In this document: positions 18,301 to 47,911 of the stretch, piece after piece | Layout of the letters: every line of letters starts with the position of its first letter | How positions within the stretch are numbered: the first letter of the stretch is position 1 | Program-made: the position numbers and the translations under genes | Source: Nitrosopumilus sp. | GTDB taxonomy: Archaea; Thermoproteota; Nitrososphaeria; Nitrososphaerales; Nitrosopumilaceae | NCBI GenBank assembly: GCA_965205215.1 | Contig: OZ242041.1 | Span: 1,952,001 to 2,016,000, forward strand | DNA length: 64,000 nt | Direction of reading: 5' to 3' | Notes under the pieces: generated by a model | What the model saw: only the letters and a program-made list of their open reading frames with translations | What the model was told of the DNA's origin: nothing | Databases searched by the model: none

Positions 18301-21300
18301 GTTGAAGGCGCGGGCGTCCCGGAACATGCCGGCCATGTTGGTTACGCTCGACGTGGTCCAGCCCGATATGTCGCCGTTGAAGGCGCGGGCGTCCCGGAAC
18401 ATCTCCCCCATGTTGTTCACGCGCGAGAGGTCCGGGGTGTCCGTCGCGTTGTATACCATGTTGCGCGCGCCCTTGAACGCGGCATTCATGGTGGTCCACG
18501 ACATGTTGCCCCACTGGTCGATGCTGAGCAGCTGGTCCGCGTGCGGGCTGGCAAAGGTGTTGCCCAGATGGAACCTCTCAAGGTTGCCCGCAATCCGGAT
18601 GGTATAGTTGCCCGCATTATCGTACGTGTGCCGTATTGCGCCCGCCGCGCCGCCGCTGACGGTGCTGTTGGTGGTGCCGTCGCCCCATGATATGTGCACG
18701 TTGGTGCCGGTTTCTATGGGGATCCGCAGGTCCTTGTCGCTTGCGGGGATGCTCCACGTGGTGACAAAGTTGTCGTCAGAGACCGGAAAGGCGTCCGAAT
18801 TGAATATGGTGAACTGCCGCTCGTGGGTGCCGGTGCCGATCGTGGCGCCGTCCGCCCTGATGGTTACGGAGTACGCGGGCTTGACGGGGGCGCTCCCCTT
18901 TATGGTCAGCGTGTCGTTCGTTACGGTAAAGTGGGCGTTGTCCCCCACGCCTGTCGGAAGCGAGTATTTGGGGTTCCCCGTGAGGTGGCCCTGCATGATA
19001 GAGTTCTGGGCCTCCACGGAGGCAGAGTACGAGCCGCCCGATTTGGTCGTACTGTCGAGTGTGACATACCAGGGCCCCAGGTTCCGGTTGAAGGCGGTGG
19101 CGCCCGCGAATATGCCGCCCATGTCGGTCACGCCCGAGATGTCCCACTCGGATATGTCCTGGTTGAAGGCGGTGGCGCCCCGGAACATGTTCCCCATGTT
19201 GGTCACGTTTGACACGTCCCACCCGGATATGTCCCGGTTGAAGGCGGTGGCGCCCTGGAACATGTTTACCATTAGCTCTACGCCGGAGGTGTCCCATGTG
19301 GATATGTCGCCGTTGAAGGCGCCGGTGCCAAGGAACATGGAGCTCATGAGGTCTACGCTCGAGGTGTCCCAGTCCGAGAGATCCTGGTTGAAGGAGTCGG
19401 CCTCGTTGAACATGCCGACCATGTTGGTCACGCTGGAGGTGTTCCAGCCGGATATGTCCTGGTTGAAGGAGGAGGCGTTCTGGAACATGCGCTTCATGTC
19501 GGTCACGCCCGACACGTCCCAGTTTGATATGTCGCCGTTGAAGGAGATGGCGTCCCGGAACATGTGGCCCATATTGGTCACGCCCGAGAGGTCGGGGGCG
19601 TCCGCCGCGTTGTATACCATGTTGCTTGCTCCACGGAACATGTTCGTCATCTCCGTCCACCGCGTGTCGCCCCACTGGTCCAGGCTGACCACATGGCGGG
19701 CGTTTGAGGGGTCGGAGGCCAAGTGCACCGACAGCCGGAGGACGTCGCCGGAGATCATCACCCGGTAGTCGCCCGCGCTCGCGTACGTGTTGAATGCCCG
19801 GCCCACAGTACCAGAAGATATATTGTCGGAGTTGCCGTCGCCCCAGTCTATGGTGAGCGTGCCGGTTCCTTTTTCATAGTTGAGATCTACCCGCTTGTCG
19901 CCGTCGGTGGCGCGCCACGTGGTGACAAAGGCGTCGGCGGGGAGCCCCCCGAGGTTGTGCGGGTTGGCTATGGTGAACTGCCGCTCGTGCACGCCCGAGC
20001 CGATCGTGCTGCCGTTGGCCCTGACGGTTATGTCGTACGAGGGCTTTGGGATGGCGTGCTCCCTCAGGGACAGCGTGGTGCCGGATATGACAAAGTTGGA
20101 GTTGTCCCCCGCGCCTGCTGGAAGCAGGTATTTTGATCCCATAAGGTGGGGGTCCAAAAGCGAGTTCTGGGTGGACAGGGTGCCCACGACGCGGTCTGCG
20201 CCGACCTCCGTGCCGTTGAGTGTGACATACCAGGGCCCCAGGTTCTGGGAGAAGGAGGTGGCGCCCGCAAATATCTTGTTCATCGAGGTTACGCCGGAGA
20301 TGTCCCACTCCGACACGTCCTGGTCAAAGGAGGTGGCGCCCTCGAACATGGAGTCCATCTTGGTTACGCTTGAGACGTCCCACCCGGACACGTCCCGGTT
20401 GAAGGAGGTGGCGTTGTAGAACATGTTCCTCATGTCGGTTACGCTTGAGACGTCCCACGTGGACACGTCGCCGTTGAAGGAGTCGGCGTCGTAGAACATG
20501 CTGAGCATGGTGGTCACGCGCGCCACGTTCCAGCTTGAGAGGTCCCGGTTGAAGGCGTTGGCCTCGTTGAACATGCCGGCCATCTTGGTTACGCTGCCGA
20601 CGTTCCACCCCGATACGTTGCCGTTGAAGACGTGGGCGTCCTGGAACATGCGCGTCATGGTGGTCACCCTTGAGACGTCCCATGAGGAGAGGTCGCAGTT
20701 GAAGGAGCGGGCGTCGCGGAACATGTGGCTCATGTCGCGCACGTTCTGGAGGCGGGGGGTGTCGTTCGCGTTGCATACCATGTTGTGCGTGTTGCGGAAC
20801 ATGCCGCTCATGTCGCTGAGCCACTGCGAGGTGCCCCACTGCTGCAGGCTGGATACCTGCCGGGCGTTCCCGGCATCGGTGCCCAGGTTTAGGCGCGGAA
20901 GGTTGGTGAGTCGGACGTCGTACGTCTGCGGCGGAAGGTTGTACGTCTTGGACTGGTCGCCGCTAGTTGTGGTTAATCCCGTGCCGTCGCCCCACTGTAA
21001 GGCGTACGAGCCCGTATAGCCGCCCACCGTGATCTTTATCGTGCGGTCGCCGTTGGTGGGGGCGCTCCACCTGAGGATGAGGTCGTTTGCCCCGGCCGCC
21101 TCGGCGGTCTCGGCCGCCGGCACCAAAAGTACGGCGCCTGCCGCCCCCACCCCGATGATCAGGACGGCGGCGAGCACGGACATCATGCGCGCCGCACCGG
21201 GGGCGCGACCGGAGGATGGGGAGGGGGCCGCGGGCCTACCTGGCGCATCATGCCCGCCTACCCTGCCGCTGCCGCGCGCGATCAGGCGCGCGCATAGGCA

Positions 21301-28939: not shown

Positions 28940-29587
28940 ATGCCGCGGGCCGGCGACGGCTGCGATGCCGCAGCCGCCATACGCATGCTCTCAAGGTACT
29001 CGCGCTCCACCAAGGCCACCAAACTGGGGCTCATACAGGGGGGTGGGGCGGGGCCGGGGAAAGACGGGCGCACCGTGCACGCGCACGCGGGCCAGCGGCG
29101 GCGGCGCCGCACGCGGGTCGGCAGGGTGGGGCCGGACGACATGAGGCGCATGGCAAGATCCGGGCTGATATCGCGTCCGGAAGGCGGCCGGCCCACAGTC
29201 ACGCCGGTGGGCCGCTGGTCGGTCACGACGTCCGGGCTGGGCATATCGTTCTTTGAGATGTGCGTCCTGGCAAAGGTGTACGGGGTTGCGCGCAGCATGG
29301 CGAATGCGGGGAACCGGGGGGCGGCAGACGACGGCCCCACGCACACCGCGACAATCCCGCTCAGGACGGTCCAGTACTTTTTTGAGGACTGGCCCGTATA
29401 CCCGGGGCGCGTCCACCACGCGCTGTCCCGCCTGCGCAGCCGCGGGCTGATCCCGAGGTCGCGCCCCAAGAGGGTTACGTGCGATATCGCGCGGCTCGAC
29501 GCCATGCGCAAGGAGCTCTTGGAAATAGGCAGGTGGGTCGACGACACGGGGGAGGAGATACGCCGCGTACTCTTACATGGATACTGA
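28940..29587 (+). CDS. Hypothetical basic protein, probably winged-helix DNA-binding
   Basis: Directly abuts the previous stop. Two wHTH-like endings: MRRMARSGLISR..TVTPVGR and VHHALSRLRSRGLI. Confidence 0.55.
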   Translation: MPRAGDGCDAAAAIRMLSRYSRSTKATKLGLIQGGGAGPGKDGRTVHAHAGQRRRRRTRVGRVGPDDMRRMARSGLISRPEGGRPTVTPVGRWSVTTSGLGISFFEMCVLAKVYGVARSMANAGNRGAADDGPTHTATIPLRTVQYFFEDWPVYPGRVHHALSRLRSRGLIPRSRPKRVTCDIARLDAMRKELLEIGRWVDDTGEEIRRVLLHGY

Positions 29588-30269
29588 GCTGGTCCGGCTG
29601 CTCATGGTGCTGGGCGTGCTGGCGGCAAACTCGTATACCGACATCAGATATAGGACCATACTCGGGAGCGACCGGCATTATGCGTGTATGGGTGGCGTCG
29701 GACTTGCTCTGTTCCTGCTGGACGGCGGATGGGCGGACGCGGGCGCCCTGTTCGGGACGGCGGCGGGAGTCACGCTCGCCCTGGTGTTGTACAGGTGCAG
29801 GGCGGTGGCCTCCGGCGACTGCATAATCCTGCTGATAGTCTCGGTCACGCTGCCCACGGCGTTTGGCGTACCGTTTCTGCCCGTTCTGGCAGGTTTGTTT
29901 GGCATCACCATACTGGCGTTTGCGGTGGTGGGATACAACGTGGCGCTGAACGTGTCGCATGCGGCGGGGCTGTACCGGCACCCGGCGGCGGGACGCCGGC
30001 CCTTCTCCTCGTGCGGGGCCGCAGGCATCCCCAAAAAGGCGGCCGCGTTCTTTGCGGCGCACCACAAAAGGAGGTGGGAGAGGCACGTGGTCCGCATCGA
30101 CGACGGACGGGGCAGCCTCTCGCTGCGCGCAACATCCGTGGGCACAAGGAGGTGGGAAACGGGGGAGGGGGAGGGGCGGCCGGTGATGGTGGCGGCCCCC
30201 GTAGTGCCGTTTCTGCTGGTGTCGACGATTCTGCTGCTACTGACACTGCACCCGGTGCTTGCGGCCTAG
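29577..30269 (+). CDS. A24-family prepilin peptidase-like membrane protein (PibD/FlaK-like)
   Basis: Multi-TM protein with SYTDIRYRTI (first Asp), ASGD (GxGD-like second Asp) and C-terminal APVVPFL. Confidence 0.8.
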   Translation: MDTELVRLLMVLGVLAANSYTDIRYRTILGSDRHYACMGGVGLALFLLDGGWADAGALFGTAAGVTLALVLYRCRAVASGDCIILLIVSVTLPTAFGVPFLPVLAGLFGITILAFAVVGYNVALNVSHAAGLYRHPAAGRRPFSSCGAAGIPKKAAAFFAAHHKRRWERHVVRIDDGRGSLSLRATSVGTRRWETGEGEGRPVMVAAPVVPFLLVSTILLLLTLHPVLAA

Positions 30270-30537
30270 CCTCCCACCGCCTTCAGAAGCCAGTGGATCA
30301 GAAAAAATGTGCAAGCTGCACTTTTTTCAACAACTGTTGTTCCAGGAACATCGTCTTCCCGGAAAAAAGTGAGGTGTGGTTTTTGCAGCTTGTGAAGCCC
30401 TGTATGCGATACTGATGCGAATTCGTGATATAGGTATAAGAAACCGGGGCCCCCTCGATTGGGTGGCCATGTCACGAATTCACATCAGTACCCCGTATGC
30501 ATAATATTATTAGACTCGAGACTTACAACCATCCACA

Positions 30538-31800
30538 GTGGCTTCAAGCGCGGTTGGCGAGAGAGAAATCGATGAGCTGATCTGGGGGGATCTAGAGTCT
30601 GAAATCATGGAAGCAAAGTTCTCACTCTATGCCGCGTCTGATGCAATCAAGAGCGCAAAGGTTTACCCGGTGCAGCTGTTGGTCGGATTCCTAGACTTCA
30701 TACACTACAGATGCAAGGGATGGAAGCCAGCACTCAGCGGTAATGAAAAGGCGGAGTTTGACGCAATAGGTGGCGATTTTGATGACCGTTCATCATGGGT
30801 AAAATTTCTGGATTTTGTTGTAGGTATGGCTCTTGATGACCCATATTTTGTCAGAGAGTTTGTAGATCAAAACGGTGACAAACATGAAGTCTTCATTCTC
30901 ATGGACACTTTCTCGCTGTTTGAATGTGGCATGATTCTGAACAAGACAAGGTTGGAGGGCGAGTCAAGGTTTTCTTCTGACTACATATCAAAGGAATTCC
31001 ACGTGGATGAAAAGAAATTGCCTAACATGCTCTCGTATTTCGAATACCTCAATGATCCAGAGCGGACGCGTGCACATCCCCTCGTGTTGAGGCCGACCAA
31101 GCTGGCAAACATGCTCTACTGGCTTTGTGACGAACTGTGGGCGTTGGCAAAGTGTCCCAAGCAAGTCCTAAGGACAGAAGAATGGGAAGAAGAAACGAGC
31201 ACGTCGAGGGGGAAATTTCTGACGCTCAACGAGTTACAAAACGGAACTGACTGCAACGAAGAAAACTTCTTGGAATTGTTAAAAACGCGCTTGATAAAAA
31301 TCCCCAACGCACAACCCCTGACTTTTTACGAGTATGTTCAGAGCATACTTTGCCCCGAGGCAGCGAAAGAGTGGGAAGGCATACGGGACAGATACATTGC
31401 CGAGAGTAAAAAAGTGCTCAAATGGGCGACTCCTGGCTTGGCCGAGGAGGATCTAGACCGTGCAAAGGCTTCGCTTGGCAAGGCACGCAAGGCATTTGAA
31501 GATGAGAGGTATGTCGAATCCGTTATATTGTCACACAAAGCTATGGAAGAAGCCCTGAGTGAAATGATAAAGCAGGACATGCGGCTTGCTGAAAAGATAG
31601 ACGTTGCCACAAGAGCCCATCCAGATCTGCACAGGCACAGAGAAGGATTGCATTTCATCAAGAAAGCTAGAAACGCGTTAGTACGCGCAGGCGGGGTGGA
31701 CGAATGCGACGCGGTCGACGCAAAATTTGCACTGGATAAGATGGATCAGTTTTTGATCAGTGTTGCGGATTCACTACGCAGTCAACGACTTGATGAATAA
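30538..31800 (+). CDS. Hypothetical protein with a C-terminal HEPN-like domain
   Basis: AT-richer than flanks. LGKARKAFEDERYVESVILSHKAMEEALS...KKARNALVR...DAKFAL follows the HEPN helical pattern; RxxxxH is altered to RNALVR. Confidence 0.65.
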   Translation: MASSAVGEREIDELIWGDLESEIMEAKFSLYAASDAIKSAKVYPVQLLVGFLDFIHYRCKGWKPALSGNEKAEFDAIGGDFDDRSSWVKFLDFVVGMALDDPYFVREFVDQNGDKHEVFILMDTFSLFECGMILNKTRLEGESRFSSDYISKEFHVDEKKLPNMLSYFEYLNDPERTRAHPLVLRPTKLANMLYWLCDELWALAKCPKQVLRTEEWEEETSTSRGKFLTLNELQNGTDCNEENFLELLKTRLIKIPNAQPLTFYEYVQSILCPEAAKEWEGIRDRYIAESKKVLKWATPGLAEEDLDRAKASLGKARKAFEDERYVESVILSHKAMEEALSEMIKQDMRLAEKIDVATRAHPDLHRHREGLHFIKKARNALVRAGGVDECDAVDAKFALDKMDQFLISVADSLRSQRLDE

Positions 31801-31960
31801 ACGATGACAATCGTCCAAGGGGTTTCCACCCCTAGACCGGATGCTCAAGCATCACCGCGATAACCCCGACGGCTTTGACAAGGCATACTACCGGCGCAGT
31901 CTAGCGGAGACTATGCTCTCCATCATCAAGGAAGGGTTCAACACGGTTTTGCGAAGAGAC
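31801..31960 (+). pseudogene. Transposase C-terminal remnant (IS5/IS4-like DDE)
   Basis: FDKAYYRRSLAETMLSIIK matches the YxxRxxxE(6)K signature; no upstream catalytic domain is present. Confidence 0.6.
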
Positions 31961-32010
31961 GCTTGCCACGCGCAGGATGTGCGGCACTGGCGCGAATTCG
32001 CGATACGGAC

Positions 32011-32118
32011 ACGGCTGGCAAAGAGGCATGAAGGCGTCTATTTTGGAGATAATGAGGGCATGAGGAACCGCGTGCAAAACGACCATCTTGTGATGATCGA
32101 AACTACCTCTGTGCCCTC
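32011..32118 (-). ncRNA. Candidate structured small RNA, copy 1
   Basis: TTTATAA box (32141-32147) lies about 23 nt upstream. Outer stem GAGGGCA/UGCCCUC, inner hairpin CGAUCAUC-ACAA-GAUGGUCG, and tail GCCCUCAUUAUCUCCA shared with copy 2. 3' end uncertain. Confidence 0.55.
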
Positions 32119-32174
32119 GCACTTTTACCGATACGCCTGATTATAAACGTGCCACGACGGTTCGGTTGCTAGGT

Positions 32175-32261
32175 ACGGCTGGTGGGGGCGCCTCATGGAG
32201 ATAATGAGGGCCCGTAAGCCGTGACAGTGACCGTCTTGGTAAGCTCAAGACGATCGGGCCC
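32175..32261 (-). ncRNA. Candidate structured small RNA, copy 2
   Basis: TTTATA box (32284-32289) lies about 23 nt upstream. Outer stem GGGCCC/GGGCCC, inner hairpin GAUCGUCUUG-(7 nt)-CAAGACGGUC, and the same 16-nt tail. 3' end uncertain. Confidence 0.55.
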
Positions 32262-32439
32262 GTATGTTTTACCGGCGTCCGACTATAAATGTGTCAAGGC
32301 GAGTCAGACGCTGCACTCAAGCGTATTTACCACAGCCTCATCACCCAGAATCTCCTCTCCTTTTCCACAAGATGAACCTGCTTGACGGGCATCATTTCCT
32401 CCGCACATCCGCTTAAAAGCCGCACGCCGCATCGTACGC

Positions 32440-34287
32440 GTGGAGATCATACGCGAGCGCCTATTCGGCGAGCCACCCAGACGCGCGTACGGGCACGCGT
32501 ACTCGATAACCCCGACCAACTTCCGCATACTGCCGGAGGAGAAGCGGCGGCGCAGACTGGCAGAGTTCTTCGAGGTGCTCAGGATGCTGGAGCGCGCGGC
32601 TACCATCACCCTTGAGCGCGTGCCCATAGCCGTCGGGAAGGGAGGCCGGGCGAACGGCGCCAAGATGGACGTGCTGCGGGTCATGCTTGACGCGGCAGAG
32701 CCGCTTGACGATATACTGGAGAGGCTTGGATTCTCATACACCATCGACGAGCCCCGCGACGCGCCGTCGGTCACGGCGCAGGGGGTCCGGGACTTTGCGT
32801 GTACCATAAACGGCTCGCCCCTGTACGGGAGGGCGTACACAGTATACGGCGCCCCCGCGGTCCTGCCGCCCGCGTGGGTCCACGACGTGTTTGGCACGTT
32901 CCACAGGCTCCAGATACACGTGACGCCGATCCGCCCCGACGACGCCCTCCGCAAGATGGAGAACCGCGAGCTGCTCCACAGCGGGGTGCGCACGAACAGG
33001 GCCGACATCCAGAAAAAGCTCCGGGACATACGCGCCCTCAAGCGGGAGCTTGAGCTCGGCAACACGTCGGCGTTTGCGTTTACGGTCAACGGATTCGTGT
33101 TCGCCACATCAAGGCAAAAGCTCCGCGAGCTGCACCGCACAGTCAAGCGCAACACGTCCGCGATGAACGTCCGCGTCACGACATCGCTTGGCAGGCAGAG
33201 GCATATCGTCCTCGGCGGCGGGGCCTCGTGGCTGGGCGCCATTCACAGCATGCACGTGCTCTACCCGTTCGTGTCGTCGGACATGCTTGAGGTTCCAAAC
33301 GGGGTCACGCTCGGCAGAAATTTGGACACACAGGGACCCGTCATATACGACGTCAACCAGCGCAAGAACCACAACGTGTTCACAGCCGGGACTACAGGCT
33401 CGGGCAAGTCGTTCACAAACAAGATACTATTGAAGCGGTTTCTGGAAAAGCGCCCGGACACCATGTGCATAGTGATAGACCCGCAGGGAGAGTACGCGGA
33501 GCACGCCGAATACTTTGGGCTTGACAGGGTGGAGATAGCGCCCGGTCAGGAGTACGGACTGGACCCGTTTGCCATGCTCGGCTCCGCGGTGGAGGCGGCC
33601 GACTTGCTGGGGGCCGCCACCAACGCGCCCAACCAGACAAGAAGGGAGTGGAGGAGCGTCTGCGATACCGTGCGCTCGATAGACGGGCTGTACGAGGCAA
33701 GCTCCGAGGCCTCAAGGGGGTACCTAGCGGACCTGGTACGCGGCGGTGTCTCCCGGGTCTTCCGAGGCAGCCCCAGGTTTTCAGACAGGATGGTCGTATC
33801 ACTGAGGAGGACGGACGGACAGGAGTACGAGGGGCTACTGATCCTGCTTGTTTTGGCGTACGCGTGGAGGCGCGTAAACGAGCTGCCGGCAAGGCAGTGG
33901 AAGTTCGTCCTGCTCGACGAGGCGTGGCGCATGACCAAGATCAACCACAGCATCAGGAAGATAGGCGAGATGGCGCGGCAGGGCCGCAAGAAGTCCCTGA
34001 TATTTGCCGTATCCACGCAGCAGTTCTCCGACATGGACCGCGCGCTAGACGACGAGTCCAGGCTCACCGAGCTGTTCGACACCAAGATAATAATGCAGAT
34101 GTCGCAGTCGGCCGCGCGCGTCATGGGCGCGGCCCTGGGGCTGACCGAGTCTGAAATAGAGCGCGTCACGAACTTCCGGGCCGGGATGGGACTGCTCCAG
34201 ACAAGCGACAACGCGGTATACCTCAGGTTCGAGGCCACCGGCGACGAGGCAAAGCGGTACTTTAACACAAAGGCGGTGCAGGGGTGA
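32440..34287 (+). CDS. VirB4-like (FtsK/HerA superfamily) ATPase, 615 aa
   Basis: Walker A GTTGSGKS, VIDPQGEY, Walker B FVLLDEAW, Arg-finger region ARQGRK, STQ motif, and a VirB4-type N-terminal domain. Confidence 0.88.
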   Translation: MEIIRERLFGEPPRRAYGHAYSITPTNFRILPEEKRRRRLAEFFEVLRMLERAATITLERVPIAVGKGGRANGAKMDVLRVMLDAAEPLDDILERLGFSYTIDEPRDAPSVTAQGVRDFACTINGSPLYGRAYTVYGAPAVLPPAWVHDVFGTFHRLQIHVTPIRPDDALRKMENRELLHSGVRTNRADIQKKLRDIRALKRELELGNTSAFAFTVNGFVFATSRQKLRELHRTVKRNTSAMNVRVTTSLGRQRHIVLGGGASWLGAIHSMHVLYPFVSSDMLEVPNGVTLGRNLDTQGPVIYDVNQRKNHNVFTAGTTGSGKSFTNKILLKRFLEKRPDTMCIVIDPQGEYAEHAEYFGLDRVEIAPGQEYGLDPFAMLGSAVEAADLLGAATNAPNQTRREWRSVCDTVRSIDGLYEASSEASRGYLADLVRGGVSRVFRGSPRFSDRMVVSLRRTDGQEYEGLLILLVLAYAWRRVNELPARQWKFVLLDEAWRMTKINHSIRKIGEMARQGRKKSLIFAVSTQQFSDMDRALDDESRLTELFDTKIIMQMSQSAARVMGAALGLTESEIERVTNFRAGMGLLQTSDNAVYLRFEATGDEAKRYFNTKAVQG

Positions 34288-34706
34288 CGCAGAGGCGACA
34301 GCGACAGAGGCGGCATGCAGCATCCGGAATGATCGAGGTCCTGATCCTGATTTCGGTGGCAGTCGTGGGCGCCGGCGCCCTTGCCGCGTGGTTCTCCGGT
34401 TCGCACGACGCGATGCAGGAGACGGGATGCACCGCGTGGATGGAGGCGCACGAGATATCCGACGGCACGTACTGGGTACAGTCGACGATACGGAACACGG
34501 GCGACCACCCTATACGCGAGTACCGCGTCATGACAGGCGCCAACAGCACGCCGGCCGCGTCGTCCCATGTGGTCTGGGAGCCTGGCCAGACTGTAGTGCT
34601 GGAGTTCGTGGTGACGGACGTGGACGACGAATCCCACCTGCGGCCTGCAAGGGTGGTAGGCCTGGGGGGAGGGGGCAGCGCGCTCTGCGAGGTGGTCACG
34701 CCGTGA
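34284..34706 (+). CDS. Archaeal type IV pilin-like protein
   Basis: Basic leader RRQRQRRHA followed by hydrophobic ASGMIEVLILISVAVVGAG (class III signal peptide-like), then a beta domain with IRNTG. GTGA overlap with the ATPase. Confidence 0.7.
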   Translation: MTQRRQRQRRHAASGMIEVLILISVAVVGAGALAAWFSGSHDAMQETGCTAWMEAHEISDGTYWVQSTIRNTGDHPIREYRVMTGANSTPAASSHVVWEPGQTVVLEFVVTDVDDESHLRPARVVGLGGGGSALCEVVTP

Positions 34707-35101
34707 ACCAGATCATACAGTATGTCCTGATATTCGGCGTGGTCGGCGTCTTTTTTGCGGCGCTGTACCAGGGCGCAACGGATGACGTGGGAGGCAGGAT
34801 CGCGTCGTACGACGACAGGCTCGACCTGTACAAGGCGCAGGCCGCAGAGCACCTCAGGCTGGTGGAGATAACGGATACCGAGCCGGCCACGGCAGACCTG
34901 ATAAACACCGGCGCAAAGGACATCAGGATAAGGCACCTGTACGTGGACGGCGTCAGGGACGACTCGTATACGGCCAGGGACAGGGACGGGCCGGTCGGCG
35001 AGCTGCGCGTGGGCAGCCTAGTTCGCATCGTCTCGGCCCTTGACGGAGGCACGGTCTCAATCGTCACCGACAGCGGCAGGGTCTTTAGGTTCGGCCAGTG
35101 A
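34703..35101 (+). CDS. Pilin-like membrane-anchored protein, 132 aa
   Basis: GTG 34703 overlaps the previous stop. MNQIIQYVLIFG TM helix, then EHLRLV...LINTGAKDIRIRHLYVDG...IVTDSGRVF. Confidence 0.75.
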   Translation: MNQIIQYVLIFGVVGVFFAALYQGATDDVGGRIASYDDRLDLYKAQAAEHLRLVEITDTEPATADLINTGAKDIRIRHLYVDGVRDDSYTARDRDGPVGELRVGSLVRIVSALDGGTVSIVTDSGRVFRFGQ

Positions 35102-35371
35102 TAACGACACGGCAGACATGATCTCGCCGAACATGGAGGCGCAGTTCTTGGAGGTCACGGAAACCTGCACCAGCGAGTCCGCGTCGCCGCCGTGAAAAAA
35201 ATTGAGCAGAATGGTGTCGTGCGACACATGCTCTGCAAATACCAGATCGCGGAGAGGCACCGCAAAGTGGCTTGTCGAGCCTCCGTCGCCGGTGCAGAGT
35301 ATGGTTCCGTCCGCGGCGATCTCCAGCTCGGCTTTTGTCTTTCCGTATATCCTGACGCGGTAGATACCCAT
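35057..35371 (-). CDS. Small hypothetical protein, 104 aa, possibly PH-like fold
   Basis: ATG 35371 lies 5 bp after the upstream stop. Beta-rich with a C-terminal helix; overlaps the convergent gene by 45 bp. Confidence 0.55.
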   Translation of the reverse strand: MGIYRVRIYGKTKAELEIAADGTILCTGDGGSTSHFAVPLRDLVFAEHVSHDTILLNFFHGGDADSLVQVSVTSKNCASMFGEIMSAVSLSLAEPKDPAAVGDD

Positions 35372-35376
35372 GCCGA

Positions 35377-36114
35377 TTATCCCCTGTTGCCGGCCCCGCC
35401 GCTGGCGCCGACACGGCTCACAAACTGCAGCGTCCTGCGCAACAGGACCGCGCCGCCCGCATGCTCCCGTATGGTAAGAACCCGGGGGCCCTCGCGTTCG
35501 GGCCTGACGTGCATCACCAGCGCGCCCTCCGCGGACGTCCGCAGCGCGTCGATCAGCTCGTCGTCCAGGTAGCACCGGACGAGCCTGTTGCCCAGCATGG
35601 CGCCGTCTCCGCCGTGTATGGTGACGCGTACGGACTTTAGCTCGTCCAGATCGGCGCACGTAATCTCCCGGACGCGCTCAACCTTTTTCGCAGTGTCAAC
35701 GTCAAGCCGGCGCGGGAACCCGAGCACCTTGGACTTCCCGCCTGCCCCTGCTCTGCGCCGCTTTTTGCGCATATCCTGCATCCAGCCGCCGCTGCCCACC
35801 CTTGCCCGGAGACGGGCCGCGAGCAGCGACAGCACGGCGAGCAGCACGACGTCTGCCGTCCCGTACGGCGTCTTTATGATTCCCAGCGCCGCGCCCACGC
35901 CCAGCGGCAGGAGAGCCGTACAGACCGACGCCCAGTCCCGCGTTATTTCCACGTTGTCAGGCACCACCGCCCAGTAGAGCGCGGCGGACACCAGTCCAAA
36001 GATGCCCAGCACCGTCAGATTGCGCAGCGACATGAACCCGAACGGGGTGGTCAGCGCGGGCTCCTCCCAGCCCGAATAGTCTCGGAAAATCAGCACTTCG
36101 GAAGGCTCTGCCAA
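35377..36114 (-). CDS. PrgI/VirB3-like membrane protein
   Basis: DYSGWEEPALTTPFGFMSLRNLTVLG followed by 2-3 TM helices resembles the PrgI pattern (E..i..GlTlRql). TTG start at 36114 assumed. Confidence 0.6.
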   Translation of the reverse strand: MAEPSEVLIFRDYSGWEEPALTTPFGFMSLRNLTVLGIFGLVSAALYWAVVPDNVEITRDWASVCTALLPLGVGAALGIIKTPYGTADVVLLAVLSLLAARLRARVGSGGWMQDMRKKRRRAGAGGKSKVLGFPRRLDVDTAKKVERVREITCADLDELKSVRVTIHGGDGAMLGNRLVRCYLDDELIDALRTSAEGALVMHVRPEREGPRVLTIREHAGGAVLLRRTLQFVSRVGASGGAGNRG

Positions 36115-36424
36115 CTTATGCACCCCACGCTTCCTTGCGGCACGCGGTCCCGAACAGATACTCCGCACGATGACACCTAGGAGAACTTACCGCCCCCGCC
36201 TCAAGACACATACAAGTCACCACATACAATCGTGCATTTTGTTTTAAGCCAGTTTTTCTTGGCGTCCACCCTTGCATACTGCACGAAAGTATCAGCCGGC
36301 CCAACAGCGTCGCCAAACGATCCAGTAGCGGCTTCGGCCCGGATCAGACGTCATTTATCTCTACGCGAGCAGGATCCGATACGACGTAATGACGTGACCG
36401 TCAGGAAATTCGCGTAAAAGACGT

Positions 36425-37549
36425 TCATGTGTCAATATAACTTCCATCCTCATCAAATAATGGGCATGCGACTCCGCCATAGTGGTTGAACATCTCGTTC
36501 ATAATGGAGGATGCAACTTGTTCGTACTTTGTTTCAAGAAAACGCACCGGATGTTCCCTCTCAATCATTATATTGTCCAAACGTTCTACTTCATATTGTA
36601 TGCTCCTCCCATCTGTAGTAGGAATTGCGCTTTTAGATGAAGATGTCAATACTGCAATTATTTTCACATCTCCAAAATAATTATAATGTGACAGTATTTT
36701 ATTGGCAAACTGTAGCATCTGCATTGTTTTTTGTGCTAGAGCCACGTACGGAAGAAGAATTATATCATTACTTTGAGAACTATAGTGACATATGTATTGA
36801 ACACATCCGTTTCTATGAATTTGTAATTTGTCAGCCTCATGATATGCGGAGATTAATCCGTGAGAAAACGGTTTCAATGCACTGTTTGGTAGACTACGAC
36901 TTCTAAAATCCTTGTCAATCCTGATGGATTCCAACATTTTAATTTGGTCATAGTCTGACGCATCAACAAGTCGATGTCTTATATTTAACGGAATGACTAT
37001 GATGCTTGCAGTTACCTCACCCTTTTTAGAACCCGGTAATATGTCCTGAATGTAATTGCCGAGTTGGTCGTAATGAGAAAAGCGGCTTCTGTAACAATCC
37101 GCGACATCCATTTCGCTCATTTCCACAGATCCGTACTGGGACCGTCTGTAGAATTTTTTGGTCATATTACTCTGATGAGGCTTTAGGTGACTGTCTGGAA
37201 CACGTACGAGCAGGACGCCTTTCTTACTGTCTGGAATTGGTATGAGTTTTGTCTTTACGTCCAGTCTGGGGACGACGTTGGATAAGACAATCTGCTCAAG
37301 CCGTTCTTTGTTCAATTCTTCCATGTCCAGTCCAGGTATATCTGTTGGGTGTCCACCCTTTCCGGACTCCTTGACGCCGAAAACGATATGCCCGCCGCGC
37401 ACGTTGGCGAATGCGCACACGTGTTTGACCAGATCCACATCGCGTATCATCATCTCCTTATAGTCCAAAATTTCGCTTTCGTCAATCTGATCTGTTAAAA
37501 GAGCATGAATGTCTGCATATGTGATTTCGGACATATCCTTCCATATCAT
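36425..37549 (-). CDS. AlbA_2 (Schlafen-like) domain protein
   Basis: ESEILDYKE, KHVCAFANVRGGHIVFGVKE, PDSHLKPH and FYRR motifs; markedly AT-rich. Confidence 0.88.
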   Translation of the reverse strand: MIWKDMSEITYADIHALLTDQIDESEILDYKEMMIRDVDLVKHVCAFANVRGGHIVFGVKESGKGGHPTDIPGLDMEELNKERLEQIVLSNVVPRLDVKTKLIPIPDSKKGVLLVRVPDSHLKPHQSNMTKKFYRRSQYGSVEMSEMDVADCYRSRFSHYDQLGNYIQDILPGSKKGEVTASIIVIPLNIRHRLVDASDYDQIKMLESIRIDKDFRSRSLPNSALKPFSHGLISAYHEADKLQIHRNGCVQYICHYSSQSNDIILLPYVALAQKTMQMLQFANKILSHYNYFGDVKIIAVLTSSSKSAIPTTDGRSIQYEVERLDNIMIEREHPVRFLETKYEQVASSIMNEMFNHYGGVACPLFDEDGSYIDT

Positions 37550-37700
37550 GTAACAAGACTTGCGATTGTGGTATTTTAATGCCCTTTTCGCGCTTCGGAT
37601 AACTTCCCAAGCCCTTCAACTCTGGCCATGCTAAATTCACTCCTAAAGATAGACACGGCCTGATGATTTTGCGCCTAACGTAGCATGACCCTCACTAATG

Positions 37701-39434
37701 TCATGACCTTGGAATCTTGCGCCTGATCAGGAATCTTTCGCCCGGTAGATCCTTTATCAGTTCCCATCCTTCCGCTGTGCCCGCCAGCAGCTCGGCCTCG
37801 CCATCTGCGATCCTGCTCTCAAAGGGAGACTTTCTGGGGGGCCTGTCATTGGCGGCGGTAACCGAGGCTGCATCTGCCACCCGTATCGCCGTCGTCGTCG
37901 TTTCCCCCGCGCCGGAGGCATCCTTGTCCTCCTCCAAGGCAGTCGCGGATGCCGTCGAGCTATCATTGGGTCCCGCGCTATCGTCCTGCGCGGATGCCGC
38001 TGCGGCCTGTCGTGGCGACGGTGGTGACACATCCCTTGCCCCGTACAGAACCCCGCCTGCAAGCATGTCGTCGGGGTCCAGCCCGTACATCTTGGCCTGC
38101 TGCCTCCACATCCCGATCAGCATCTTGCGCCTGTCCTTTTCCGAGTCATATGTGGCGTCGGTGGACAGGAACGCCTGGCTTTGCTCAAACGCGCGCCTCA
38201 TGTCTTCCGTCATCTGCTCCGTCAGCCTGCCCTTGTTGGTGGTATACCTGGCTTCCATGTCCCCCTTGTGCCCCATGAAGAACTGCCGGTACGCGTGCGT
38301 CATGCACCCGTGGCTTTCTGCAATCAGGAGCTGGCTGTCAAAGTACGCCCTCAGCGCATAGGGGCGCGCCCTGAGCACGCTCCAGATTGCGGGGCGGGCG
38401 ATGGCGCCCAAGGCGGTGGTGGCCACGAACCCGTTTCCCCTATCGTCAAGCTTGCGCCACCCCTTGAGGCGGTATCCAAAGGCCACCGTCACGAGGGGCG
38501 AGCCGGGCCTCAGGACCTCGCCCCGGGCCATCCTCTCCCGGAGGTACCCGAGCACGTACTTGCAGCCCTCCTCGGCCAGAAATGTAAAGTACTTTTTCCG
38601 GATCTTGCTCAGCTGCGGCCTCACTATAACCATAGCGGGGATCCTGGAAAAGCGGGTGTGGCCGCCGTCGAGCACCAGGTCGGGCAGGTCCGATAGCACC
38701 AACCCGTCACTGCGGTCTGCAAGCCCCATGACCTGCGGCCTCACCCCGGCAAAGGCCATCATGCTTATGATTGCCCTGCTGCGCGGGTCTGCCGCGTCCA
38801 GTATCTTTTTGAGCTGTTCCTTGTCCGGCACCTTTTCGTCCTGGATGCTCACCGGCACGTCGGAGTTTGCGATCTTGATCTTGCGCTTGATCTCTATGTG
38901 GTTGTATTCCAGCCAGGACTTTACGGCGGCCAGCATCCCCTTGGTGTACCCGGGGGCGTACCTTTTCTCCTCCATCCACGACACGTGGTCAAGCAGCGTG
39001 TTTTCGGCCCTCATCGGGTCTCTCCTCCCCATCTTTGCCAGCTCGTGCGGCGTCATCCCCACCCTGTCGCAGAACAGGTTCAGCCGCCTGAGCCTGACGG
39101 TGCACGTGAGCATGCTGGACCTACGCAGGTTGTCGTGCCACCGCCTCACGTCCGGATCACTCAGCAGTAGGGTCGGGGGATCTTTTGCCATTCTGTTCCA
39201 GCTGTTAAAATTCGAATCTGATTCAAGAGGAGGCTTGCGTTTCGCGCCTACTCCTGCTGCCGACGAGGTTCTTTTGGATTTAAGCATTGGAGAGCCGGGT
39301 TTGCCTGCCTGAGCTCCCACGAATCCGGTGCCTTGCGCGGGGCCCAGCTTGTTATCACGCGCGTTACGCCCGGACATAGTGCTGTTGCGTTTGCCAGAAT
39401 TCTTGGCACGTGCACTAAGCATCATCGGGCCCAC
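37701..39434 (-). CDS. Archaeal tyrosine integrase, paralog A
   Basis: AGVRP (R), LSK (K), PYALR (YxxR), MGH and RY motifs; C-terminal EGWELIKDLPGERFLI motif. Confidence 0.9.
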   Translation of the reverse strand: MGPMMLSARAKNSGKRNSTMSGRNARDNKLGPAQGTGFVGAQAGKPGSPMLKSKRTSSAAGVGAKRKPPLESDSNFNSWNRMAKDPPTLLLSDPDVRRWHDNLRRSSMLTCTVRLRRLNLFCDRVGMTPHELAKMGRRDPMRAENTLLDHVSWMEEKRYAPGYTKGMLAAVKSWLEYNHIEIKRKIKIANSDVPVSIQDEKVPDKEQLKKILDAADPRSRAIISMMAFAGVRPQVMGLADRSDGLVLSDLPDLVLDGGHTRFSRIPAMVIVRPQLSKIRKKYFTFLAEEGCKYVLGYLRERMARGEVLRPGSPLVTVAFGYRLKGWRKLDDRGNGFVATTALGAIARPAIWSVLRARPYALRAYFDSQLLIAESHGCMTHAYRQFFMGHKGDMEARYTTNKGRLTEQMTEDMRRAFEQSQAFLSTDATYDSEKDRRKMLIGMWRQQAKMYGLDPDDMLAGGVLYGARDVSPPSPRQAAAASAQDDSAGPNDSSTASATALEEDKDASGAGETTTTAIRVADAASVTAANDRPPRKSPFESRIADGEAELLAGTAEGWELIKDLPGERFLIRRKIPRS

Positions 39435-44361: not shown

Positions 44362-44736
44362 ATGGCGTTGGACAGGAGGAGTGGTAAGATGGTGGGGGAT
44401 AACAGGGCGCCAGCTGACGAGTATGCGACGGTATTTAGCGAACTCAACAAGATTATCGAGGCAAGCATGAAGACGACGGAGGAGCTCAATGCAGCGGTTA
44501 AACCATATGTAGAGATGATGGAGAAGATCGAGGCGTCGACTAAGCCATATGTAGAGATGATGGAGAAGGCCGAGGCGTCGACTAAGCCATATGTAGAGAT
44601 GATGGAGGAGCTCAATGCAGCGGTTAAACCATATGTAGAAATGATGAAGAAGGCCGAGGCGTCGGTTAGCGAATTCAAGAAGCGTATGATGGAGCATATG
44701 GAGAGGATGGATCGGCTCGCGACATCGTTTGACTAA
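44362..44736 (+). CDS. Small helical protein with four 14-aa repeats (KPYVEMMEK/E)
   Basis: ccatatgtaga occurs at 44503, 44545, 44587 and 44629 (42-bp period). Confidence 0.7.
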   Translation: MALDRRSGKMVGDNRAPADEYATVFSELNKIIEASMKTTEELNAAVKPYVEMMEKIEASTKPYVEMMEKAEASTKPYVEMMEELNAAVKPYVEMMKKAEASVSEFKKRMMEHMERMDRLATSFD

Positions 44737-45800: not shown

Positions 45801-46159
45801 TTCTTACCTTGACGTGTCCTTACATAACAAGCCAAATGCTACAAGAGTAGTTATGGCAAAGAACATGACTGGTCGATCAGACATAAGGCAGCCTATTATG
45901 GTTTTATCGGAAGTGCAAAATAACAAGGTTATGGTCAAACAAATCATGAATATTATGAAAAATGCCCCCCAAATTTTTCTCCGTGTCACTGTGCCTGTTT
46001 GCCTAGGAGAGATTATTTATAGATTTTAAGTACTGGTTCCGTTTCCAATTAGTGACCTAATGCCAATTTGGACTAGATTAGGCACGGCATAGATGCAGGT
46101 TGGGCGCAGGTCACGAATCGGAGGCAGAACCCGGTTTAGCTGCCCTGCTACCAATGTCA

Positions 46160-47911
46160 CTACCTTGGAATCTTGCGCCTGATCAGGAACCTCTCGCCGG
46201 GCAGATCCTTTACTAGGTCCCATCCTTCCGCGGTGTCCGCCAACAGATCGGCCTCACCGTCTGCAATCCTGCTCTCAAAGAGAGACGGTCTGGGGGCCTT
46301 GTTATCGGCGGTGACTGCAACCGAGGCTGCGTCTGACGCCTGTATCGATGTCGCCTGTATCGCCGGCACCGCCGTTTCCCCCGCGCTGGGGACACCTCTG
46401 TCCGCCTCCAAGGCAGTCGCGGGTGCCACCACGTCATCATTGATCCCCGCACTACCGTCCTGCGCGGACGCGGCTGCGGCCTGCCGCGGCGGCAGCGACG
46501 ACGGTACACCCCGCGCCCCGTCCAGAGTCCCGCCCACAAGCATGTCGTCGGGGTCCAGCCCGTACATCTTGGCCTGCTGCCTCCACATCCCGATCAGCAT
46601 CTTGCGCCTGTCCTTTTCCGAGTCATATGTGGCGTCGGTGGACAGAAATGGCTGGCTCTGCTCAAACGCGCGCCTCATGTCCTCTGTCATCTGATCCGTA
46701 AGCCTGCCCTTGTTTGTCGTATACCTGGCCTCCATGTCCCCCTTGTGTCCCATGAAGAACTGCCGGTACGCGTGCGTCATGCACCCGTGGCTCTCAGCGA
46801 TCAGGAGCTGGCTGTCAAAGTACGCCCTCAGCGCGTAGGGGCGCGCCCTGAGCACGCTCCAGATTATGGGACGGGCGATGGCGCCCAGGGCGGTGGTGGC
46901 CACGAACCCGTTTCCCCTCTCGTCAAGCTTGCGCCACCCCTTGAGATGGTATCCAAAGGCCACCGTCACGAGGGGCGAGCCGGGCCTCAGAACCTCGCCC
47001 CGGGCCATCCTCTCCTGGATGTACCCGAGCACGTACTTGCAGCCCTCCTCGGCCAGAAATGTAAAGTATTTTTTCCGGATCTTGCTCAGCTGCGGCCTCA
47101 CCACCACCATCGCGGGGGTCCGGGAAAAGCGGGTGTGGCTGCCGTCAAGCACCAGGTCCGGCAGGTCCGAGAGCACCAGTCCGTCACTGCGGTCTGCAAG
47201 CCCCAGTACCTGCGGCCTCACCCCGGCAAAGGCCATCATGCTTATGATTACCCGGCTCCTCGGATCCGCTGCATCCAGTATCTTTTTGAGCTGTTCCTTG
47301 TCCGGCACCTTTTCGTCCTGTATGCTCACCGGCACGTCCGAGTTTGCGATCTTGATCTTGCGCTTGATCTCTATGTGGTTGTATTCCATCCAAGACTTTA
47401 CGGCGGCCAGCATCCCCTTGGTGTACCCGGGGGCGTACCCTTTCTCCTCCATCCACGACACGTGGTCAAGCAGCGTGTTTTCGGCCCTCATCGGGTTCTT
47501 TCTTCCCATTTTCGCCAGCTCGCGCGGCGTCATTCCCACCCTGTCGCAGAACAGGTTCAGCCGCCTGAGCCTGACGGTGCACGTGAGCATGCTGGATCTG
47601 CGCAGGTTGTCGTGCCACCGCCTCACGTCAGGATCTCTCAGCAGTACGGCCGGGGGATCTCTTGCCATTCTGTTCCAGCTGCGCAGATTCAAAGTAGGTT
47701 TAAGACGCAGCCTTCGTTTCGTGCCTCCTCCTGTTGCCGGCCGGGTTCTCCGGGATTTAGTCGCTGGAGAGCCGGGTTTGCCTGCCTGAGCTCCCACGAA
47801 TCTGGTGCCTTGCGCGGGGCCCAGCTCGCCGTCACGCGCGTTACGCCCGGACATAGTGCTGTTGCGTTTGCCAGAATTCTTGGCACGTGCACTAAGCATC
47901 ATCGGGCCCAT
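46160..47911 (-). CDS. Archaeal tyrosine integrase, paralog B
   Basis: Near-identical core to paralog A with the same catalytic motifs. Homology begins at ATG GGC CCG (47911); the ORF track extends the frame to 47971. Confidence 0.9.
   Translation of the reverse strand: MGPMMLSARAKNSGKRNSTMSGRNARDGELGPAQGTRFVGAQAGKPGSPATKSRRTRPATGGGTKRRLRLKPTLNLRSWNRMARDPPAVLLRDPDVRRWHDNLRRSSMLTCTVRLRRLNLFCDRVGMTPRELAKMGRKNPMRAENTLLDHVSWMEEKGYAPGYTKGMLAAVKSWMEYNHIEIKRKIKIANSDVPVSIQDEKVPDKEQLKKILDAADPRSRVIISMMAFAGVRPQVLGLADRSDGLVLSDLPDLVLDGSHTRFSRTPAMVVVRPQLSKIRKKYFTFLAEEGCKYVLGYIQERMARGEVLRPGSPLVTVAFGYHLKGWRKLDERGNGFVATTALGAIARPIIWSVLRARPYALRAYFDSQLLIAESHGCMTHAYRQFFMGHKGDMEARYTTNKGRLTDQMTEDMRRAFEQSQPFLSTDATYDSEKDRRKMLIGMWRQQAKMYGLDPDDMLVGGTLDGARGVPSSLPPRQAAAASAQDGSAGINDDVVAPATALEADRGVPSAGETAVPAIQATSIQASDAASVAVTADNKAPRPSLFESRIADGEADLLADTAEGWDLVKDLPGERFLIRRKIPR

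Follow-up and report, generated by a model that had tools for sequence, protein, structure and literature searches.

The window analyzed here, by which we mean the whole 64,000-nt stretch of DNA, belongs to a genome that forms a single contig of 2,098,239 bp and matches the archaeal 16S rRNA model at 1459.5 bits. GC content is 60 to 70% over most of the window's length. The element under study includes a tyrosine integrase (21859 to 23469) and a VirB4-like gene, a 615-aa ORF on the plus strand (32440 to 34287) for a VirB4/HerA-type ATPase, with a multi-pass membrane protein gene upstream of it. The VirB4-like ORF carries the Pfam domains DUF87 (E 2.9e-11) and AAA_10 (E 3e-09) and matches the NCBIfam VirB4-like CD1110 family at E 8.5e-24, a match that stays under the family cut-off. 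Its closest counterparts in public genomes, at 88 to 93% protein identity, are VirB4 loci of Nitrosopumilaceae/Thaumarchaeota MAGs, so that the organism is most likely a Nitrosopumilaceae member of high GC content. With its tyrosine integrase, VirB4/TrbE-like ATPase, and multi-pass membrane protein, the element agrees in gene content with the thaumarchaeal integrative-conjugative elements of Krupovic et al. (2019, PMC6563490); in the accessible part of that article, by contrast, protein genes only are described and the term "non-coding" has 0 occurrences. A sister element—a second, diverged conjugation module at genome positions 672391 to 678109—shows 83 to 86% identity to window positions 29000 to 30278 and 32404 to 36295.

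A low-GC stretch just past the conjugation module encodes a 374-aa protein on the minus strand (36425 to 37549) with a Schlafen AlbA_2 domain (E 1.4e-18). The region of a 577-aa minus-strand ORF (37694 to 39433), in which no Pfam domain was found, has an 89% identical copy at ~46150 to 47910, about 8.5 kb away in the window, and weaker copies at at least four other genome positions. A direct repeat at 44471 to 44664 (~68 nt, 91% identity, spacing 126 nt) also lies in a low-GC stretch.

Between the membrane-protein gene and the VirB4-like gene, the element carries an insert of 2.1 kb (Table 1), flanked by blocks that the sister copy shares, one reaching up to 30278 and the other beginning at 32404. 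The sister element has ~570 different bases at this site in place of the window's 2.1 kb. Among 14 related loci anchored on VirB4, similarity to the window restarts only at 32381 to 32409, in 9 of the 14, and the segment 31974 to 32400 has no match in any of them. Because the sister copy differs here and none of the related loci matches that segment, we regard the site as a variable cargo site; on these comparisons it is a cargo hot spot, with different cargo in each copy and in the 14 related loci. Two public DNA runs contain both the window form and the sister-element form of the locus by contig comparison, and a third study contributes a 1442-nt DNA contig identical to window positions 30866 to 32307; the search for sequencing runs with this sequence returned these three and no RNA run.

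The insert holds, in order, a MITE-like 84-mer, ORF420, an IS5-type transposase relic, ~70 nt of further sequence, and the two units that concern us here. A ~1-kb element at genome positions 948160 to 949186 has inverted ends to which the two halves of the 84-mer correspond (98% and 93%), and assembly contigs break at both edges of the 84-mer, leaving loose ends at 30410 and 30493. ORF420 has 15 homologs in the protein collection at 42 to 80% identity, mostly from metagenome assemblies (14 from ENA). Its C terminus weakly resembles HEPN (E 0.02) and AbiV (E 0.013), and its profile finds a match in 4 of 400 other family genomes, with a stop interrupting two of those copies; judged from these resemblances, it is possibly a defense-type cargo gene. 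The transposase relic matches NCBIfam IS5 at E 0.057 and shows in translation a Y-R-E-K spacing that we take to be the motif of IS5-type transposases; its DNA alignment with the intact copy contains a 2-nt gap, so that it is both truncated and frameshifted. It makes up the N-terminal third of a 99-aa plus-strand ORF (31841 to 32140) that we rejected as a gene, as the ORF has no homolog but itself and only its first 38 residues resemble a transposase. Within the relic, positions 31858 to 31909 also resemble 32504 to 32565, near the 5′ end of the VirB4-like coding sequence, in three short collinear stretches: one of 13 nt that is exact, one of 17 nt at 82%, and one of 18 nt at 83%. The reading frames differ between the two sides, and the similarities may be chance or microhomology.

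The units, A and B, are two neighboring diverged copies of ~100 bases each, built from a TATA box, a stem-enclosed hairpin, and an identical 16-base tail (Table 1). The motifs that the initial annotation had listed—TTTATA, CGGTAAAA, the stems, the hairpins, the 16-mer, CCAGCCGT, and TGGAGATCAT—are all present where it had placed them in its reading of the minus strand. Its distance of about 23 nt from TATA box to outer stem likewise holds, the stems starting at 32261 and 32118, 23 to 24 nt past the last base of the TATA hexamer. In longer folds, the outer stem of unit A competes with a hairpin that places UAUCUCC in a loop. A covariance model built from both copies recovers A at 32168 to 32292 (131.6 bits) and B at 32009 to 32150 (162.3 bits).

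Table 1. Features of the cargo insert, the two units, and the adjoining VirB4-like gene start (window positions)
Feature	Position	Strand	Basis or remark
Low-GC cargo insert, ~50% GC	30279..32403	.	GC profile; comparison with sister element and 14 related loci
MITE-like element, 84 bp	30410-30493		Made of both ends of a ~1-kb IS elsewhere in the genome
ORF420, 420-aa low-GC protein	30538-31800	+	Open reading frame
Relic, 3′ part of IS5-type transposase gene	31840..31973	+	tblastn to three genome IS copies; DNA alignment with intact copy
Unit B, conserved block ACGTTTATA through 16-mer, 107 nt	32044..32150	-	MAFFT and Smith-Waterman alignments
Unit B TTTATA, candidate TATA box	32142..32147	-	Sequence; BRE/TATA PWM 3.1
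Unit B conserved CGGTAAAA	32123..32130	-	About -12 to -5 if start = 32118
Unit B outer stem, 32118-32112 with 32060-32054, around hairpin	32054..32118	-	Folds
Unit B inner hairpin, 7-bp stem, one G-U pair, 4-nt loop	32081..32098	-	Folds
Identical 16-mer, copy B	32044..32059	-	Sequence, alignments
Unit A, conserved block ACATTTATA through 16-mer, 97 nt	32196..32292	-	MAFFT and Smith-Waterman alignments
Unit A TTTATA, candidate TATA box	32284..32289	-	Sequence; BRE/TATA PWM 5.3
Unit A conserved CGGTAAAA	32267..32274	-	About -13 to -6 if start = 32261
Unit A outer stem, GGGCCC 32261-32256 with 32213-32208, around hairpin	32208..32261	-	76-nt fold
Unit A inner hairpin, 10-bp stem, one G-U pair, 7-nt loop	32229..32255	-	Inverted repeat and folds
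Identical 16-mer, copy A; 3′ edge of homology	32196..32211	-	Sequence, alignments
Shared CCAGCCGT downstream of 16-mers	32182-32175 (A), 32018-32011 (B)	-	Sequence
VirB4-like gene TTAAAA box (32413-32418) and GTG start (32440), including proposed target	32413..32450	+	Conservation, spacing calibration

On alignment evidence, A and B are true diverged duplicates. With the 16-mer removed, the ~90 nt upstream of it align with a local score of 35 (dinucleotide shuffles: 15.8 ± 2.9), a score reached by 1 of 1,000 shuffles. The homology block starts 3 nt before TTTATA and stops exactly at the end of the 16-mer. Downstream, alignment against shuffles detected no homology beyond CCAGCCGT; this motif, earlier described as shared, does occur in both units but at chance level, since 97 of 1,000 shuffles score as well in that region.

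Conservation within the block is uneven. The MAFFT alignment has 62 identities in 107 columns (58% identical), a figure that falls to 51% when the 16-mer is set aside. For such an alignment, 16 consecutive identities have a permutation p of 0.00275 (20,000 permutations), so that 16 identical bases against 51% elsewhere indicate constraint on a nucleotide motif. Identity at 16 of 16 tail positions is what a conserved seed would show, in a comparison that comprises two paralogs only. A second conserved block, A/T-rich, lies inside the homology block, as expected for a promoter plus an RNA. Across the 2.1-Mb genome, the exact 16-mer occurs at two sites, both of them in the units, and the composite TTTATA..GGTAAAA is likewise confined to them. 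With one or two mismatches, the 16-mer finds seven genome sites in unrelated contexts, where twenty shuffled 16-mers find 0 to 4 sites each. A coding role for the 16-mer was rejected, as the two minus-strand ORFs read it in different frames (ALIIS in B and GPHYL in A). The 73-aa minus-strand ORF was set aside as well: It starts 25 nt after TATA, outside the 27 to 31 nt at which start codons peak in this genome (see below), has no counterpart in A, and gave no Pfam match. By all these sequence measures, the unit is real, duplicated, non-coding-looking, and heterogeneously conserved.

Both units fold more stably than their dinucleotide shuffles. On the minus and plus strands, respectively, z was −2.66 and −1.29 for 76 nt of A, −3.40 and −2.75 for 83 nt of B, and −4.20 and −3.37 for 106 nt of A. 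The predicted minus-strand folds are thus the better ones in both units, a modest, consistent preference. Each hairpin includes one U-G pair where the plus strand would have an A-C mismatch. This wobble, which the initial annotation had used to assign the strand, fits the minus strand in each hairpin, but the shared position it was said to occupy appears only in a structure-fitted alignment. The covariation claimed for the inner hairpins depends on the same choice: It arises only when GATCATC in B is set against GATCGTC in A, and both MAFFT and Smith-Waterman pair the 5′ arm of A with a different segment of B. RNAalifold on the MAFFT alignment found no common structure (SCI 0.07 on the minus strand, 0.06 on the plus). 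A hand-made, structure-fitted alignment gives an SCI of 0.42 (z −4.7) with one G-C/A-U exchange, a value that is circular because the alignment was fitted to the structure, and because no homolog was found there is no independent covariation. Of the earlier description as paralogous structured small RNAs, then, duplication, non-coding appearance, and uneven conservation hold, whereas a common structure is not recovered in sequence-based alignment.

We calibrated promoter geometry on the genome itself, using 42 tRNA upstream regions and the start codons of ORFs of at least 150 aa. The promoters of the 42 tRNA genes have an A-rich BRE followed by a TTTAAAT-like box, with TATA ~30 nt before the mature 5′ end. 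ORF start codons peak 27 to 31 nt after the first T of TATA-like hexamers (20, 26, 49, 41, and 16 counts at the five distances, against a background of ~8; 1258 sites). Leaderless mRNAs are therefore common, with a TATA-to-start distance of ~28 to 30 nt. The unit stems start 28 nt (A) and 29 nt (B) after the first TATA T, within the peak, and with this spacing each RNA should start on the first base of its stem. BRE/TATA matrix scores on the minus strand are 5.3 bits for A and 3.1 for B, where the tRNA median is 12 and the conserved VirB4 promoter scores 6.9. Plus-strand readings, at 5.3 and 5.6, are the same as the minus and low on both strands. The A-rich BRE of tRNA promoters is absent from both unit TATA boxes, and reading of the sequence found no T-rich terminator after the tail in either unit. 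The proposal that each unit has its own TATA box thus keeps the hexamer and its genome-conforming spacing, set against low, strand-symmetric scores and a missing A-rich BRE.

Searches for relatives returned the two units themselves. Rfam 15, run on both strands of 30000 to 35000 at E up to 10, gave 0 matches in the units and three weak ones outside them, far below gathering; the description as "unrecognised" RNA agrees with this search. The accompanying word "family" does not survive, as there are two copies only and no homolog elsewhere in any collection searched. The covariance model, applied to 150 relatives (90 of the same genus), gave no credible match: The best scores were 15.9 to 18.7 bits, and three weak matches proved unrelated on inspection. 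In the window, the 14 VirB4-anchored loci, and three other loci, the same model found units A and B alone. BLAST against the own genome (E up to 10) returned only the query; in 201 family genomes, a 661-nt query found nothing beyond the IS relic and the start of VirB4; and plasmid and phage collections yielded no blastn match. A contig search by way of ORF420 yielded 0 relatives, and the loci of ORF420 homologs in four family genomes have no units within 1.5 kb, from which we take the units to be unlinked to ORF420.

Pattern searches with the 16-mer gave the same picture. Across 400 family genomes, the 16-mer with at most one mismatch has 17 matches (8 for the reversed control), none with unit context. 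Viral contigs contain 31 exact 16-mer matches, none with the second motif in context and most of them in one phage coding sequence. In metagenomes, a pattern of CGGTAAAA followed by the 16-mer gave 0 hits, and one of GGTC followed by the 16-mer gave 14 loci, none with unit context; the best scored 17.6 bits, a value accounted for by the 16-mer that the pattern itself selects.

The initial annotation had also proposed the start of the divergent VirB4-like gene as a target of the conserved tail. A TTAAAA box lies 27 nt before the GTG of this gene. The sister copy and 9 of the 14 related loci keep both the box and the first codons, while the sequence between them varies. Given the conserved box at this distance, the VirB4 mRNA is probably leaderless, which would place the proposed site at its very 5′ end. 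The site itself, TGGAGATCAT at 32441 to 32450, is complementary to the tail at 9 of 10 bases, as claimed, and is identical in the sister element and nine related elements. The predicted duplex of the 16-mer with the first 30 nt reaches −12.3 kcal/mol at best; among 20,000 random 30-nt windows drawn from the genome, 8.98% do at least as well. As ~9% of random windows do as well, the complementarity is at chance level and the match is not evidence for VirB4 as a target. One version of the idea goes further: The sRNA pair, with an anti-Shine-Dalgarno-like tail, would silence a leaderless VirB4 mRNA by pairing with its outermost 5′ bases, the start codon among them. This would be a trans-acting equivalent, in archaea, of plasmid fertility inhibition, and it would block transfer of the carrier element and of its rivals alike. 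We give this proposal very little credence. The tail's last 10 bases agree with the last 10 of 16S rRNA at 7 positions, both internal differences being C to U, and by this resemblance GGAG-type sites in general could pair with it.

Our preferred, tentative reading is that the units are two paralogous orphan sRNA genes on the minus strand, carried as cargo on the integrated conjugative element of a high-GC, Nitrosopumilaceae-type archaeon. A separate TATA box would drive each unit, with transcription starting near 32260 in A and 32118 in B. The RNA would begin directly with the stem around the stable hairpin and would end in, or read through, a single-stranded tail that includes AUUAUCUCCA within the identical 16-mer. 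The tail would be the constrained part and act as a base-pairing seed; given its likeness to the 16S 3′ end, its partners could be purine-rich sites of the GGAG type located at translation starts or close to them.

Decay is the strongest competitor of this reading, and we consider it possible though rather unlikely: The units would be non-functional debris of an old tandem duplication of ~100 to 150 bp in decaying cargo, with motifs that have not yet drifted or that were homogenized by a short gene-conversion tract. Their setting suits such an origin, a strain-specific, low-GC insert where they lie beside a truncated, frameshifted IS5-type relic and a MITE-like 84-mer. So do the lack of a homolog in any collection searched, the sequence-based SCI, the weak, strand-symmetric promoter scores, and the chance-level VirB4 match. 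A 16-base identical run against 51% identity elsewhere is nonetheless unlikely under uniform drift, by the permutation test given above, and a stable hairpin, with a stem around it that starts at the calibrated distance from TATA, has been kept in each copy independently. That two copies should still be recognizable after such divergence would also be unexpected in a compact 2.1-Mb genome.

The neighboring relic suggests a second origin, which we regard as improbable: The units may be the 3′ tail of a truncated IS, either as sub-terminal repeats (for example, transposase-binding sites) or as a passenger segment of an IS5-type element. As the relic reads in the plus direction, the 3′ non-coding end that it lacks should fall where unit B starts, and the intact copy has ~190 nt of non-coding DNA between the transposase gene and the right inverted repeat. 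The 3′ end of that intact copy and two other partial copies, however, are without similarity to the units (BLAST, E up to 10), and a related IS in another genome also lacks them; inspection by eye found no match to the IS terminal repeat between 32040 and 32404. MITEs and IS ends share with the units their nature as short non-coding repeats beside transposase debris, and a match to such ends had been named beforehand as an outcome that would tell against small RNAs. By sequence there is none, yet unit B does start ~70 nt beyond the relic. Speaking against this class are the presence of two adjacent copies only, the lack of terminal or flanking inverted repeats, and the absence of resemblance to the genome's IS copies. 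Nor do the units resemble any multi-copy element in the genome.

Alternatively, the 16-mer and an imperfect palindrome, in two copies, could act at the DNA level as binding sites for a regulator, a partition protein, or a replication/transfer protein; this, too, has only a small chance of being right. Such a pairing of an exactly conserved 16-mer with a neighboring inverted repeat is typical of operator-like or origin-like sequences, and the fold signal is present on both strands. Neither the sister element nor any of 14 related elements with shared conjugation genes contains these sites, however, which makes a core element function unlikely. The element contains no further copy, even at two mismatches over 13 bases; the one additional match in the window, at 19338, does not stand out from chance (3 found against 0.63 expected, with 2 of 100 shuffles reaching 3). 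No candidate binding protein is linked to the sites, the homologs of ORF420 occurring without units.

Least credible of all is a set of plus-strand features: ORF420 read-through, a hairpin plus TTTT acting as a terminator-like signal, TATAAA promoters, and tiny ORFs that the 16-mer would open with GGAG plus ATG. In its favor, the near-palindromic TATA hexamers score equally on both strands, the 16-mer reads GGAG..ATG and opens ORFs of 3 to 9 codons, and TTTT follows each hairpin. Against it, the T runs are just 4 long and lie 14 to 23 nt after the hairpins, a promoter would sit at the 3′ end of its unit with the last one serving nothing homologous, the mini-ORFs diverge in length and sequence after three codons, and the plus-strand fold z-scores are weaker.

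Known RNA classes were compared with the units and rejected, those of the C/D box, H/ACA, and tRNA-like kinds on inspection by eye. C/D box sRNAs have a C box (RUGAUGA) and a D box (CUGA) near their ends; on the plus strand of unit B, GTGATGA and CTGA occur at a distance of 50 nt, with no matching internal boxes, and A is without a C box. H/ACA sRNAs carry an ACA/ANA box directly 3′ of the lower stem, where the outer stems here are followed by UCA UUA (A) and AUU AUC (B). A tRNA-like structure was dismissed by eye, and ARAGORN finds no tRNA in the window. Type III toxin-antitoxin systems of the ToxI kind have near-identical tandem RNA repeats immediately 5′ of the toxin gene and in its orientation. 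The two units, in contrast, share 58% identity, converge with ORF420, and diverge from the VirB4-like gene, and ORF420 homologs are found without them.

FinP, a small structured antisense RNA beside the transfer genes of bacterial plasmids, is encoded opposite its target and fully complementary to it. The likeness lies in a candidate small structured RNA beside transfer genes of a conjugative element, proposed as a repressor. The differences are that the units match the VirB4 start at 9 of 10 bases, at chance level, and that they are absent from related elements. A cis-antisense arrangement of the FinP type was rejected, since nothing of the units extends past 32292, short of the VirB4-like gene start at 32440, and the two do not overlap.

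As candidate archaeal intergenic sRNAs, the units find a closer parallel in trans-encoded archaeal sRNAs. According to a review (PMC4152357), Methanosarcina mazei sRNA162 uses an unstructured region to cover both the ribosome-binding site and the start codon of its target. Like it, the units are small and intergenic, with a candidate promoter of their own, a predicted structured body, and a single-stranded stretch that would pair with mRNA; unlike it, they are known here from sequence alone, and no sequence or Rfam relationship to sRNAs of that type was found. In a host with mostly leaderless mRNAs, moreover, a 5′-end target would have to include the start codon itself, which sets the present case apart from sRNA162.

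The candidate sRNA pair is thus a well-formed orphan prediction in one strain, within a patch of decaying mobile DNA, and as it stands would support no family, target, or mechanism. Literature search listings for ammonia-oxidizing archaea returned no sRNA study. If transcribed, the two units would be among the first candidate regulatory RNAs on a mobile element of ammonia-oxidizing archaea.
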